From a virus, in the IMG/VR virus record IMGVR_UViG_3300036766_000032, positions 1 to 64,000 of that record: a stretch of 64,000 nucleotides of DNA; one strand, given 5' to 3'. How positions within the stretch are numbered: the first letter of the stretch is position 1; each line of letters begins with the position of its first letter. Shown here piece after piece: positions 12,503-19,680 of this stretch. The notes beneath the pieces were generated by a model. It worked only from the letters and a program-made list of their open reading frames with translations, was not told where the DNA came from and searched no databases. The position numbers and the translations under genes were made by a program.

Positions 12503-12898
12503 ATGCTTCTTCCGGAAAAATATTCGTACAGCCCGTGGCGGATGCTCTGCGTCTGCCTCGTGCTGAATCGGAGTAAGGGGTCGACCCCTATGGGTCCAAT
12601 TGAGAAACTGTTTGAGGCGTTTCCGGAGCCCGAGTTGATGGCTTCTGCAAACTCTTCAAAGGTCTCGGTCATACTCAAACCGACCGGATTCCCGGACCGG
12701 AAGGCGGAGGCTCTCATCCGACTATCGAAGGCTTACTCCACTCGATGGGGGAAGAGTGACTTCGACCTGAAGAAACTTCCCGGGGTTGGTAAGTACGCCC
12801 AGGAGTCCTGGAGAATATTTATCGACGGGGACACCAACTTTGAACCGGAGGATCGGAAACTTAAGGCCCACGTGACAAAGGCGAAGAATGATAAATGA
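12503..12898 (+). CDS. MBD4-like HhH-GPD DNA glycosylase
   Basis: PWRMLCVCLVLNRS, HhH LPGVGKYAQESWRIF and PEDRKL, matching the MBD4 catalytic-domain pattern (PWKLL..IFLNRT, LHGIGKYGNDSYRIF, PEDHKL). Confidence 0.8.
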   Translation: MLLPEKYSYSPWRMLCVCLVLNRSKGSTPMGPIEKLFEAFPEPELMASANSSKVSVILKPTGFPDRKAEALIRLSKAYSTRWGKSDFDLKKLPGVGKYAQESWRIFIDGDTNFEPEDRKLKAHVTKAKNDK

Positions 12899-13337
12899 GA
12901 AAATGTTGGGTAGTCTTGTGGGGCAGATGGCCCCCCTTGTTGATGATCCATCGAAGTGGGTGGGAGTTGACGACTTGATTGAAATATACCTTGAGGAGTT
13001 TAATCGATTTGAGAAGACGGTCGTCCACACTAATCCCGATCTGAAGACCAAGTTCTGGCGGGACTCCCTCGGGTTGATCCGTAGCCGGATCCGAGGTCAG
13101 GAGAAGTCAAACATTGACCTCCTTCGTCGGAAGCATGCCGCGTACGGGGGTAAGTCCCTAATCTGGTGTGGTCATCTTGGAGTGGTGACCCGGAGCCTGG
13201 ACAAGTTAGCCCGGATCAAGAACCTGGGGAATAATCCGGGGGTCGACAATCTAAATGAGTCGACCAACGATTCTTGGTCGGATCTTTTCAACTACGCCGT
13301 CCTGGGGTATCTTTTGTCGAAGGGGGGGATCACCTGA
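12888..13337 (+). CDS. nucleotide modification associated domain 1 (Nmad1/DUF1599) protein
   Basis: RKHAAYG...GVVTRSLDKLARIKNL...ESTNDSWSDLFNYAVLG. Confidence 0.75.
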   Translation: MINEKMLGSLVGQMAPLVDDPSKWVGVDDLIEIYLEEFNRFEKTVVHTNPDLKTKFWRDSLGLIRSRIRGQEKSNIDLLRRKHAAYGGKSLIWCGHLGVVTRSLDKLARIKNLGNNPGVDNLNESTNDSWSDLFNYAVLGYLLSKGGIT

Positions 13338-14722
13338 TGTGCGGAGTCAACTACACTCCTCTCGGAAGGGAGGTAGCTGAAAAGATGAATGAGTCGATCG
13401 CCCACCGTGGTTTGGTCGGACGATCGAATGTGGACATGATCGGTCGACAGGGTCATTTAGGTCACGTCCGGCTTCCGATCCAGGGACTGTCGACGGAGCA
13501 CGATCAACCGTACCACGGAGGAGAGGGGGGACGATGGACGATGGGATTCGTCGGAGAGGTGTTCAACTTCCGGGATTTTGATCCGGAAGCCTCCAGCGAC
13601 GTAGAGGTCCTGATGGAGACGTGGGATTCGGACGGACTGAATATATTCCCCTTGTTCGACGGGTTCTGGGCGTGCATCATCCACGACCTAATGGAGGACG
13701 TCGTTCATGTGGTCACCGATCCGTTGGGAAAGAAGCCGCTGTACATACACGCGGCCTCATGTTCAATCTCATCTGAGATTAAGGCCCTCATTGAAGTGGC
13801 CGGAATTGACGCCCGGATAGAGTTCGATGAACTGTACTTCTCATCTGTCCAGAAGTGGGGGTACCACGTCGGGGACGAGACTCCGATCAAAGGGATCTTA
13901 AAGATCCGACCATCAACTCATCTAGTAATCCGAGATGGGAGGATCGTCTACGGGGAGAAGTACGTTGCAGTCAAACCGCGTAAAGTCGACCTACGTAACG
14001 CGATTGAGGTCTCAGTAAGTAACCGGATGGTTTCAGACGTTCCGGTAGCGTGTCTTCTGTCCGGAGGTCTAGACTCAAGCATCGTGTTCAAATTGATGCT
14101 ACGTCACCGCCAGGATTTTACCGTGATTCACGTTGACAACGGGGAAGAGGAGTTCCTGAACTATCTGGACATCCCATCATCAGTTACCGTGATCAAGGTC
14201 CCAAAGATAGACGATGCCGTTTCGATTGAGACCCTAAAGCAGATAGTGTTGGCTAATGAGAGTCCGTCCGATCTCGGGTCGATGATCCCTCAGTACCGGA
14301 TGTCAAAGGCCCTTAAGAAGAATGGTATCCACGTGGTCATGACCGGGGACGGCGCCGACGAACTGTTTGGGGGATACCGCCGGTCTCAAGAGTACGACAG
14401 TCAGTGGAGCGACGTCTTTCAGGAACTGGTCTACTATCACCTGCCCCGGCTTGACAAATTGTCCATGGCGCACACTGTCGAACTTCGCAGCCCGTTCCTT
14501 AGCTTACCCGTCGTCGAAGCCGCCTTGGCGTTACCGTATGGGAGCCGCATCGATAAGAACGGGTTGAAGAGCGTGTTCACGGATATTATCCCGGCTCCGA
14601 TCCTGGCACGTCCGAAACTCCCGCTGAAGTCCCCCCAAGTCAAGAATCTAGGCCTTGAATGGGTCCGACACCTGTGCAACGTCTACAAGGAGGCGATCAA
14701 TGAAAGTTACAGAAACGGATAA
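13337..14722 (+). CDS. asparagine synthetase B-like glutamine amidotransferase
   Basis: N-terminal MCG (Ntn Cys), HRG, GHVRL, GEVFNF, DPLGKKPLY, PP-loop LSGGLDSS, TGDGADELFGGY, ELRSPFL. Confidence 0.9.
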   Translation: MCGVNYTPLGREVAEKMNESIAHRGLVGRSNVDMIGRQGHLGHVRLPIQGLSTEHDQPYHGGEGGRWTMGFVGEVFNFRDFDPEASSDVEVLMETWDSDGLNIFPLFDGFWACIIHDLMEDVVHVVTDPLGKKPLYIHAASCSISSEIKALIEVAGIDARIEFDELYFSSVQKWGYHVGDETPIKGILKIRPSTHLVIRDGRIVYGEKYVAVKPRKVDLRNAIEVSVSNRMVSDVPVACLLSGGLDSSIVFKLMLRHRQDFTVIHVDNGEEEFLNYLDIPSSVTVIKVPKIDDAVSIETLKQIVLANESPSDLGSMIPQYRMSKALKKNGIHVVMTGDGADELFGGYRRSQEYDSQWSDVFQELVYYHLPRLDKLSMAHTVELRSPFLSLPVVEAALALPYGSRIDKNGLKSVFTDIIPAPILARPKLPLKSPQVKNLGLEWVRHLCNVYKEAINESYRNG

Positions 14723-18332: not shown

Positions 18333-19111
18333 AACTATATTCTGACCCAGAAGAAGCTATCAAAGCGACGACGACTCAGATTCAGAGGATGAACCACCTA
18401 ATTCACACGGAGAAGTGGCAGGGATTCGACATCTCGAAGAAACCGGAAGCTGAGATGCATGAGATTCTGGAGTGGGATTTCAAATTCCCCATGGTGGCCG
18501 AAGACCTCGGGTACTACCGGAAGCAGATCCAGCCGAACATCCCATGGGCCGACGACCACTTCGAGGAACGCGTCTCGGGGGAGCCGGTCAATCCCGGAGA
18601 GACGTGGAAGAACTGGCCTTGGGCTAACAAGGCGGATGAGTCCCGAATCTTCGACGGGAAGTTCAGTCACACGTACATGGAACGGTACTGGCCGAAAGTT
18701 ATGAACGGGGTTGGCGTAGAGGGGCACCGATTTCTATATGGAGACTTGGACGACGTCGTCGCGCTTCTGACTAACGAGCCCCTGACTCGTCAGGCTTACC
18801 TCCCAATCTTCTTCCCGGAAGACACGGGAGCGGTCCACGGTAATCGGATTCCATGCACACTAGGCTATTGGTGGATCCGACGAGGGAACCATCTCCACGT
18901 CCACTACCCGATCCGATCATGCGACTTTTACCGTCACTTCCGAGACGACATCTACCTTACGGTTCGTCTTACGATCTGGTTGCTCAAGGAACTTCGAGAG
19001 AAGTCTCCGGAGAAGTGGAACAACGTCAAACTCGGAACTTACTCTATGTGGATCGGAAGTCTTCACCTGTTCCGAAACGATTTCATAAAACTGTTTGGAG
19101 CGACCAAATGA
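18329..19111 (+). CDS. thymidylate synthase homologue, dCMP-modifying type
   Basis: TRQA, catalytic PC, RSCDFYRHFRDD, GSLHLF; GGAG RBS before ATG 18329. Confidence 0.85.
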   Translation: MKLYSDPEEAIKATTTQIQRMNHLIHTEKWQGFDISKKPEAEMHEILEWDFKFPMVAEDLGYYRKQIQPNIPWADDHFEERVSGEPVNPGETWKNWPWANKADESRIFDGKFSHTYMERYWPKVMNGVGVEGHRFLYGDLDDVVALLTNEPLTRQAYLPIFFPEDTGAVHGNRIPCTLGYWWIRRGNHLHVHYPIRSCDFYRHFRDDIYLTVRLTIWLLKELREKSPEKWNNVKLGTYSMWIGSLHLFRNDFIKLFGATK

Positions 19112-19680
19112 GACCGACAAGAGATTCTATTAACCTGAGCATCGCTCGGGTAGTAGCAACCCGGTCGACGTGCCTCAGGCGGTCGGTCGGTTGTGTTCTG
19201 ACAGATGTTAGTGGTCACATACTTTCGACGGGTTACAACGGGGTGGCGCGAGGAGTCCCCCACTGTAATGACTCTATGGTCGCCCGGTTCCATCACTTCA
19301 CCGAGTTCACCTTCGCAGTTGACGGGTTGCGCGCCTCAGGAGTAATCACCAAGGACGCCCAGGTGGAGCCCGCTCCAGAAGGGCCGTACATGGTGTCGTA
19401 TTACCCCGATGCGTGTCGAGGATCGAACTCTCCCAGCGGTACGAACTTAGATGGGTGTGGGGCGATCCACGCTGAGCAGAATGCTTTGCTACAGTGTCCG
19501 GACGTGTCGTTGATCCACACTTGTTATTGCACGACCGCGCCGTGCGTTACCTGCACGAAGCTTCTGATGAACACCGGTTGTCAACGGATCATCTTCATTG
19601 AGGACTATCCCCAGTCAGGAGCGTCGAAGGATCTTGCTGAAAGACGAGGTATATTATGGGAACAAGAACTAATGGTTTGA
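19108..19680 (+). CDS. dCMP deaminase
   Basis: RSTCLRRSVGC, TGYNG, HAEQNA, PCVTC. Confidence 0.9.
   Translation: MRPTRDSINLSIARVVATRSTCLRRSVGCVLTDVSGHILSTGYNGVARGVPHCNDSMVARFHHFTEFTFAVDGLRASGVITKDAQVEPAPEGPYMVSYYPDACRGSNSPSGTNLDGCGAIHAEQNALLQCPDVSLIHTCYCTTAPCVTCTKLLMNTGCQRIIFIEDYPQSGASKDLAERRGILWEQELMV

Follow-up and report, generated by a model that had tools for sequence, protein, structure and literature searches.

What does a phage make with a run of overlapping genes that couples a thymidylate synthase (TS) homolog to an asparagine synthetase-like (AsnB-like) amidotransferase and two methyltransferase homologs? The question is raised by positions 12503-19680 of the virus record IMGVR_UViG_3300036766_000032, whose first 64 kb (64,000 nucleotides, hereafter the window) we analyzed. 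The most likely function of this eight-gene cassette is to replace cytosine in DNA, or to decorate it, with an amide-bearing group. The evidence leans modestly toward a cytosine-directed DNA hypermodification system in which the TS homolog and the AsnB-like protein form the core. Other enzymes of the cassette would support this core, and two methyltransferase homologs, one of the cytosine C5-methyltransferase (C5-MTase) type and one with an NPPY motif, would be its accessories.

The Eight-Gene Cassette

All eight genes are contiguous on the + strand, with successive start and stop codons overlapping or adjoining, as described in a first-pass annotation made from the letters of the window. The genes, and the segments into which the fifth of them divides, are as follows:

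12503-12898, + strand: MBD4-type HhH-GPD DNA glycosylase, 131 amino acids (PF00730, E = 1.6e-6; PDB MBD4 glycosylase domain, E = 8e-17)
12888-13337, + strand: Nmad1/DUF1599-like small protein, a weak assignment (PF07659, E = 2.8e-4, under the Pfam cut-off; PHROG 1485, E = 1e-8)
13337-14722, + strand: AsnB-like glutamine amidotransferase/ATP-dependent amide synthetase, 461 amino acids (Asn_synthase, PF00733, E = 9.5e-43; GATase_7, PF13537, E = 6e-13)
14700-15320, + strand: all-alpha nucleoside triphosphate (NTP) pyrophosphatase of the dimeric-dUTPase/MazG superfamily (dUTPase_2, PF08761, E = 1.3e-8; PHROG 12184, E = 3e-20)
15340-17454, + strand: C5-MTase homolog, precursor of 705 amino acids from the ATG at 15340 (PF00145, E = 7e-12)
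15340-15597, + strand: N-extein of the C5-MTase homolog, with motif I GITCGVGS and motif II NIEW, ending in HPE
15598-16485, + strand: intein, 296 amino acids (Hint_2, Intein_splicing, PT-HINT; DUF559, E = 1.5e-9; MTES_1575, E = 4.8e-11)
16486-17454, + strand: C-extein of the C5-MTase homolog, with CGNFS (catalytic Cys), MDDL, QKNRKR, GKFMP and a C-terminal Cys cluster
17451-18332, + strand: NPPY amino-methyltransferase, with motif I DPTMGAGTT followed by motif IV NNPPY (N6_N4_Mtase, E = 1.7e-13; PrmC, E = 7e-8; CcrM, E = 1.4e-6)
18329-19111, + strand: TS-superfamily enzyme, predicted to be directed at deoxycytidine monophosphate (dCMP) (PHROG 160, E = 3e-26; AlphaFold2 TS fold, predicted local distance difference test (pLDDT) 91)
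19108-19680, + strand: dCMP deaminase, with zinc motifs HAE and PCVTC (PF00383, E = 4.8e-14; PHROG 174, E = 4e-36)

Comparisons with Pfam, PHROG and PDB supported seven of the enzyme identities given in the first-pass annotation, the exception being the weak Nmad1 assignment. The glycosylase aligns with the PDB MBD4 domain over residues 3-122 and places a Glu opposite the Asp of the MBD4 sequence GNDSYRIF, which we take to be the catalytic residue. PDB searches gave no informative relatives for the NTP pyrophosphatase or the Nmad1-like protein, and nothing informative was found in the literature on Nmad1 or on cultured phages with the TS homolog.

The same annotation had placed the cassette behind a single promoter at 11985-12015. 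A consensus scan did not return a promoter there; by eye, TTGCCT and TATGAT can be read 19 nt apart. Because all genes between ~0.5 and 25 kb lie on the + strand, a single promoter for the cassette is at most putative.

The TS Homolog Is Predicted to Act on Cytosine Nucleotides

The TS homolog gave no Pfam match at E 0.01, the family Thymidylat_synt included. Foldseek searches with an AlphaFold2 model returned at the top the dCMP hydroxylase of phage HY126 (9IQU), MilA and T4 dCMP hydroxymethylase, with true TS enzymes behind them, and sequence-profile searches of the PDB ranked these proteins in the same order. Three positions of the TS family, numbered N177, D169 and L143 in ThyA, are diagnostic: Asp at N177 denotes a preference for dCMP, and the L143 position is Leu in ThyA and Asp or Glu in T4-like hydroxymethylases and MilA (PMC13326640). 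The homolog has an invariant catalytic Cys176 and carries Asp207 at the N177 position, which is why we consider it cytosine-directed. It retains the equivalent of D169 (Asp199, within RSCD, invariant in the alignment) and has an invariant Arg173 at the L143 position, three residues before the Cys. The W-x-x-W motif, read from the sequence and the alignment, is also kept, in line with a folate-type enzyme. Taken together, these residues indicate a cytosine-nucleotide enzyme of a subclass uncharacterized so far.

Several established identities were considered for this protein and rejected. It is not a true ThyA, given the Asp at the N177 position and the lack of a Thymidylat_synt match, and it is not a 5-hydroxy-dCMP synthase, since D169 is kept and the D169N change is missing. 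It shares with dCMP hydroxymethylases the TS fold, the catalytic Cys and the Asp at N177, but has Arg173 in place of their acidic residue at L143. A pathway of the 5-hydroxymethyluracil (hmU)-kinase type was likewise ruled out because no kinase was found. The early region yielded no kinase match in Pfam and no P-loop kinase of the 5-HMUDK type, and the genuine Walker A proteins of the genome are limited to a primase-helicase and a 1007-amino-acid head-region protein. The earlier statement that certain pathways are missing thus stands for 5-hmU DNA kinase and other small P-loop kinases; genes for Z-base and 7-deazaguanine were absent among the Pfam matches of the early-region genes scanned and were not searched for by name. 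The earlier proposal of pyrimidine substitution by the TS homolog can be narrowed in the same way: the TS homolog, NTP pyrophosphatase and dCMP deaminase fit the T4-type logic that it invoked, but the target would be cytosine rather than pyrimidines in general.

The TS family occurs in 120 of 50,697 GenBank phages, where annotators name it ‘thymidylate synthase’. These 120 cultured phages, which infect Gordonia, Serratia, Brevundimonas, Pseudomonas and other hosts, have the same Arg/Asp subclass and all lack the C5-MTase homolog; examples are Brevundimonas phage vB_BpoS-Strzyga, Serratia phage Serbin and Gordonia phage GTE2. Two TS subfamilies, 25-30% identical to each other, are found in the loci related to the window, and both retain the Asp and the Arg. 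In two cultured phages that we examined, the gene has as neighbors another TS-like gene of greater divergence, a dUTPase-like gene and a deoxynucleoside monophosphate (dNMP) kinase. The loci concerned are positions 6141-7825 of the Brevundimonas phage Strzyga locus (L044) and 3987-7708 of the Yersinia phage P744 locus (L045), the latter with a cytidine deaminase in addition.

The AsnB-Like Protein and the TS Homolog Form the Probable Core

The AsnB-like protein combines an Asn_synthase PP-loop domain (SGGLDSS) with a glutaminase domain that begins MCG, and matches E. coli AsnB at E = 6e-20. Its family conserves Cys1 as well as the Arg and Asp that bind glutamine. The protein scores 223.6 bits against TIGR01536, the asparagine-synthase equivalog, for which the cut-off is 267.1. 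Its nearest match among GenBank phages, at 26% identity, is gp124 of Streptomyces phage TurkishDelight, which lies in a locus ordered ParB, ParB, methyltransferase, GATase protein, methyltransferase. No close relatives were found when viral contigs were scanned with the single protein. An alignment profile retrieved relatives on 391 viral contigs, and we read the neighborhoods of the best 80 loci over 8 kb.

In 44 of these 80 loci, an Asp/Arg TS homolog is encoded within 8 kb of the AsnB-like gene, often adjacent or overlapping. The C5-MTase homolog was found over the same distance in 20 loci and is absent from 60. Both the TS homolog and the AsnB-like gene are present without a C5-MTase homolog in 26 loci, and the converse arrangement, a C5-MTase homolog without a TS homolog, is limited to two truncated contigs. 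The gene sets are therefore nested: the loci with the C5-MTase homolog fall within those that contain the TS homolog and the AsnB-like gene. Because 26 loci have the pair without the C5-MTase homolog, we regard the TS homolog and the amidotransferase as the core and the C5/NPPY pair as an add-on. The same pairing means that the substrate of the amidotransferase cannot depend on the C5-MTase homolog, and renders doubtful the earlier suggestion of post-replicative alkylation followed by amidation.

We also approached the cassette from the C5-MTase homolog, for which an alignment-based scan of IMG/VR gave 44 viral matches representing 42 distinct loci. The TS homolog is present in 36-37 of the 42, and in 33-34 the AsnB-like gene lies immediately upstream in the same orientation. 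The dCMP deaminase follows (22-28 loci), then the NPPY methyltransferase as a separate gene (17), a dUTPase_2-type pyrophosphatase (14-15) and a PRA-PH/MazG-type pyrophosphatase (12). An Nmad1-like gene lies just upstream of the AsnB-like gene in five to six loci, and a DUF6378-like protein occupies a similar position in 16. The MBD4-like glycosylase is found in none of the other C5 loci (0/42) and in one of the best 80 AsnB-like loci. Whole-record searches with the TS profile gave exactly one match in each of 15 related virus records, including all 12 that are at least 90% complete. Most polymerases of the related phages are only ~25% identical to that of the window, whereas the cassette proteins are 40-60% identical. 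The first-pass annotation had read the block as a hypermodification operon and had named a lack of co-conservation in related phages as grounds for refuting it; the genes are co-conserved, and a base-modification operon, not a chance neighborhood, is supported.

A separate group of AsnB-like genes, 36-40% identical to that of the window, lies on viral contigs of up to 248 kb and has neither partner nearby (L072, L073, L076-L080, L123 and others; ~7450-10130 in each). These genes are flanked by conserved proteins of ~180 and ~255 amino acids that belong to no family.

The C5-MTase Homolog Is Interrupted by an Intein and Linked to the NPPY Protein

Relatives of the C5-MTase homolog (hereafter C5 homolog) fall into more than 240 metagenomic protein clusters with ~50% identity to the C-extein, and no match was found among 50,697 GenBank phages at E 1e-8. 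Pfam, profile comparisons and a structural model of a relative agree on a C5-MTase fold, the catalytic Cys lying in motif IV. The family profile matches HaeIII and 3G7U at E = 1e-14 to 1e-15, and the AlphaFold2 model of the relative P0123 (pLDDT 93) resembles DNA C5-MTases generally. A phmmer search of the PDB with the full precursor matched only the intein endonuclease. Within the family, motif IV reads HPEC without exception, MDDL replaces the ENV of methyltransferases in motif VI, and motif VIII is QKxRxR. Motif X is G-K-x-M-P, with a Lys that is invariant in alignments of 22 and 35 sequences, at a position held by Asn in ordinary methyltransferases. An invariant cluster of four Cys residues (WYC...AC..CW....C; 17250-17454 of the window) follows motif X; it is unusual for C5-MTases and could be a zinc or iron-sulfur site.

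An intein that the first-pass annotation had overlooked separates HPE from the catalytic Cys. It has a Hint domain, Cys1, a C-terminal Lys-Asn and a +1 Cys, with Lys rather than His as the penultimate residue, and is inserted at a conserved active site where the catalytic Cys doubles as the +1 nucleophile. Intein-free homologs read HPECGNFS without interruption. The endonuclease of the intein is of the DUF559/MTES_1575 type (Vsr-like, PD-(D/E)XK-type) and is neither a LAGLIDADG nor an HNH enzyme. A genome contig (L050) contains an intein at the identical site with 35% identity to that of the window, and inteins of this kind occur in about 16 of the 38 long C5 homologs. Fusion to an N6_N4-type methyltransferase is seen in about 22 of these 38 (including P0244, P0249-P0251, P0254 and P0270); P0241, P0248 and P0260 combine an intein with the fusion. 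Because of these fusions, we consider the NPPY gene at 17451-18332 to be functionally tied to the C5 homolog.

Three metagenome-assembled genomes contain a C5 homolog: on one mis-binned phage contig, on one 8.9-kb contig and as one truncated chromosomal remnant. The remnant, at 5681-6354 of L051 (from a 2.78-Mb contig of an uncultured alphaproteobacterium), retains the N-terminal part and C-extein residues 17-132 and stands without partner genes. Probably left by a prophage that has decayed, it offers the sole hint of a host.

Proposed Mechanism and Alternative Explanations

We propose that the TS homolog and the AsnB-like enzyme would jointly build a C5-substituted cytosine. The TS homolog would modify dCMP at C5, with folate as the presumed cofactor because D169 and the W-x-x-W motif are kept. 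The AsnB-like enzyme would then finish the side chain as a carboxamide or amine, using ATP and ammonia that probably derives from glutamine. The NTP pyrophosphatase and dCMP deaminase would adjust the nucleotide pools in the manner of T4, the C5/NPPY pair would act on DNA after replication, and the MBD4-like glycosylase would probably remove deaminated modified cytosines opposite G. The basic residues predicted beside the C5 substituent, Arg173 in the TS homolog and the motif X Lys in the C5 homolog, hint at an anionic group there. A more specific version of this proposal, which we advance tentatively, is that the Arg-type TS homolog and the AsnB-like enzyme make an undescribed cytosine nucleotide, and that the Lys-type C5 homolog, together with its fused NPPY methyltransferase, is a natural DNA enzyme that acts by covalent catalysis at C6 on residual or already substituted cytosine and needs no carboxy-S-adenosylmethionine (carboxy-SAM). 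The nucleotide might arise if a nucleophile bearing a carboxyl group captured a one-carbon unit and amidation followed, or if ammonia displaced an adenylated 5-hydroxymethyl group. To our knowledge, ordinary C5-methyltransferases studied in vitro provide the only previous examples of such C6 reactivity on cytosine without carboxy-SAM.

Several points weigh against our proposal of a TS/AsnB-like core. AsnB-type enzymes adenylate carboxylates, and neither 5-hydroxymethyl-dCMP nor 5-methyl-dCMP has one, so an extra step is needed. The oxyanion-hole Asn of the glutaminase site is replaced by Val in the AsnB-like family. If the TS homolog led to replacement of all cytosine, no free C5 would be left for the C5 transferase and its accessory role would be unexplained. 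T4-type substitution normally needs a dNMP kinase, and none was found in the genome. Neither a TS nor a C5 partner lies within 8 kb in 34 of the 80 AsnB-like loci, and the neighbors in these 34 matched neither a Pfam family nor the TS profile. Co-occurrence of the genes could stem partly from shared descent. The gene identities, active-site residues, co-conservation, nesting of the gene sets and lack of CmoA are shown; we infer every chemical step, the level at which the AsnB-like enzyme acts (nucleotide or DNA) and the product.

The first-pass annotation did not recognize the gene set as a characterized pathway; a characterized relative has now been published. In Synechococcus phage S-B43, CmoA makes carboxy-SAM, CmoX uses it to put a carboxymethyl group on cytosine C5 (giving 5-carboxymethylcytosine), and CmoY, a homolog of Asn synthetase, ligates glycine to give the glycine amide (Yang et al., Nat Commun, December 2025; PMC12783734). 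That study equates Arg350 of CmoX with Asn304 of HhaI and uses SPPC plus Arg350 as its search filter, counts 4,257 CmoA genes for 5,615 CmoX sequences, and predicts that one CmoY cluster, which has a glutaminase domain (A0A7T0Q3R0-type), uses ammonia; we take TurkishDelight gp124 to be a likely example. It also reports that the engineered M.MpeI N374K uses carboxy-SAM and that the CmoA of E. coli itself is enough for this in vivo (PMC12783734). We took the SpCmoX sequence from GenBank MN018232 and compared it with the C5 family by profile-profile alignment with hhalign. The match has a probability of 99% (E = 5e-17) and places the motif X Lys on Arg350; Arg itself occurs at this position in two distant family members only (L032 and L033).

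This alignment raises the possibility of a CmoX/CmoY-type route fed by carboxy-SAM from the host, in which the Lys-type C5 homolog would make 5-carboxymethylcytosine, the AsnB-like enzyme would amidate it to 5-carbamoylmethylcytosine, and the TS homolog, deaminase and pyrophosphatase would be a separate supply module. Such a route would provide the carboxylate that AsnB-type chemistry needs, would draw on a host CmoA as M.MpeI N374K does in E. coli, and accords with the predicted glutaminase-type CmoY, given that gp124 is the nearest GenBank-phage match of the AsnB-like protein. We nevertheless consider it rather unlikely. The motifs of the C5 homolog (HPEC and DDL, not SPPC and ENV) depart from those of CmoX, SpCmoX (8YF3) ranks eleventh among the structural matches, and the C5 profile did not reach SpCmoX at E 0.001. 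CmoA (TIGR00740) gave no match in the complete genome at E up to 10 or in 33 related virus records at E 1e-3; none of these 34 virus genomes, 12 of which are essentially complete, has the gene, as against the published ratio of CmoA to CmoX. Nor is CmoA encoded by any of the three metagenome-assembled genomes with a C5 homolog, one of which belongs to a class where only 4 of 121 genomes have it, a comparison to which we give little weight. The 26 loci with the AsnB-like gene and TS homolog in the absence of the C5 homolog count against the route as well, since independence of the amidotransferase from the C5 homolog argues against a simple CmoX-then-CmoY order.

Two other explanations seem to us improbable, for different reasons. 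The cassette might be a set of ordinary, unrelated parts: thymidylate synthesis, pool cleaning, anti-restriction methylation by the C5 and N6/N4 enzymes, and an AsnB-like auxiliary metabolic gene. Every one of these families is common in phage replication modules, the genes share a long + strand early region with DNA polymerase A, SNF2 helicase, ligase and Cas4-like nuclease, and the TS homolog goes by ‘thymidylate synthase’ in GenBank. This sits poorly with the Asp for Asn at the specificity position of the TS homolog and its lack of a Thymidylat_synt match, with the invariant Lys for methyltransferase Asn and the altered motifs IV and VI of the C5 homolog, and with an AsnB-like protein that falls under the asparagine-synthase cut-off and is tightly linked to the TS homolog across phages with ~25% identical polymerases. 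We give as little credence to a thymine-analog route, in which the TS homolog would modify dCMP and the deaminase would convert the product to the matching deoxyuridine monophosphate derivative (e.g., 5-hydroxymethyl-dUMP or thymidine monophosphate), leaving DNA cytosine free for the C5 homolog. It would remove the conflict that a C5 transferase poses for full replacement of cytosine, fits the adjacent, overlapping TS and deaminase genes (together in 22-28 loci), and suits the lack of a detected phage dNMP kinase if the product were accepted by host thymidylate kinase. About one in three of the 42 loci lack the deaminase, and the AsnB-like enzyme would be left without a carboxylate substrate unless the host-fed CmoX/CmoY route also held. 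A cytosine-directed system built on the TS homolog and the AsnB-like enzyme is therefore the reading that we favor.

Genome Setting

The record is a complete virus genome of 75,896 bp with 127-bp direct terminal repeats. A sediment metagenome, stored as contigs, was the single sequencing run found to contain the window sequence and is its probable source. All genes from ~0.5 to 25 kb are on the + strand, and a morphogenesis block on the − strand makes up the remainder. Besides the cassette, the early + strand region encodes a family-A DNA polymerase, Cas4-like nuclease, SNF2 helicase, DHH phosphoesterase and ATP-dependent ligase. The head-region protein mentioned above (62407-64000 of the window, 62407-65430 of the genome, − strand) carries the Walker A sequence GKPGSGKS. 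No close relative was found among GenBank phages: the DNA polymerase A is 39% identical to polymerases of Stenotrophomonas and Pseudoxanthomonas phages, the capsid protein shares 47% identity with its Pseudomonas and Roseobacter phage counterparts, and nucleotide-level similarity to cultured phages is restricted to short stretches of the TS and deaminase genes. The genome has no tRNA genes.

Directly upstream of the cassette is one further gene, identified from its translation:

12067-12501, + strand: small basic protein of 144 amino acids with Ala/Lys/Pro repeats (AKP/AKAT; histone H1-like)

It matches no Pfam or PHROG family and has no counterpart in the 42 related loci. A short inverted repeat, CCATC taagag GATGG, lies at 12025-12045, downstream of the putative -10 element and ahead of the block's first gene, and could be an operator or an RNA hairpin.

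Significance

The modified bases of phages decide whether their DNA escapes restriction, CRISPR and other nuclease defenses, and have repeatedly yielded tools for epigenetic sequencing and DNA labeling. The cassette is common in environmental viromes, with its amidotransferase family on 391 IMG/VR contigs and its C5 homolog in more than 240 protein clusters. Because it is missing from cultured phages, its product has escaped chemical analysis, and the literature searched holds no characterization of the gene combination or of the TS subclass. It would add to the TS family a new branch with Arg where methylating and hydroxymethylating enzymes differ, and may add a second, CmoA-independent use of a basic motif X residue in C5-methyltransferases. 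Cultured phages with the Arg/Asp TS subclass, such as Strzyga and P744, have DNA that is open to direct analysis. The recurrent intein at the catalytic Cys and the fusions of C5 and NPPY proteins provide handles for genetic testing.

Comparison With Known Systems

The closest resemblance is to CmoA/CmoX/CmoY. In both systems, a C5-MTase homolog with a basic motif X residue adjoins an asparagine-synthetase homolog within a phage DNA-metabolism operon, with a MazG-like pyrophosphatase nearby, and the AsnB-like protein has the domain composition of the predicted glutaminase-bearing CmoY. The resemblance is real, but membership fails on the features that we tested. The C5 family has Lys for Arg in motif X, HPEC for SPPC in motif IV and DDL for ENV in motif VI, and thus falls outside the CmoX search filter; its members are frequently fused to NPPY proteins or split by inteins. 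The cassette is accompanied by a TS homolog of the dCMP type and not by CmoA. The AsnB-like family is far wider than the C5 homolog (391 versus 44 viral contigs) and pairs with the TS homolog alone, whereas a CmoY would depend on a neighboring CmoX.

T4 replaces cytosine by means of the dCTPase gp56, the dCMP hydroxymethylase gp42, the dCMP deaminase Cd and the dNMP kinase gp1. The cassette likewise encodes, in one operon, a TS-fold enzyme with the Asp that specifies dCMP, an all-alpha NTP pyrophosphatase and a dCMP deaminase. It differs in the Arg at the L143 position, which is Asp or Glu in T4-like enzymes and MilA, in lacking a detectable dNMP kinase or glycosyltransferase, and in having an amidotransferase as a constant partner. 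The 5-hydroxy-dCMP synthases (RB69 gp48, DLP3 gp80 and HY126 AfhB; 9IQU/9IQC; PMC13326640) are the best PDB matches of the TS homolog and share its Asp at N177, but are set apart by their D169N change.

The logic of the cassette is also that of thymidine hypermodification by 5-hydroxymethyldeoxyuridine (5-hmdU), 5-HMUDK and amino-acid:DNA transferases (AADT), where a TS homolog supplies a handle ahead of replication and the base is completed by tailoring enzymes. Amidotransferases have been noted as unexplained co-associated genes in those systems (Lee et al., 2018, 2021; PMC5889632, PMC8989533). The cassette differs from them in its predicted cytosine-directed chemistry and in having no P-loop DNA kinase and no aGPT-Pplase or AADT. 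In kind, it is a system already known, namely phage pyrimidine hypermodification founded on a TS homolog with later tailoring.

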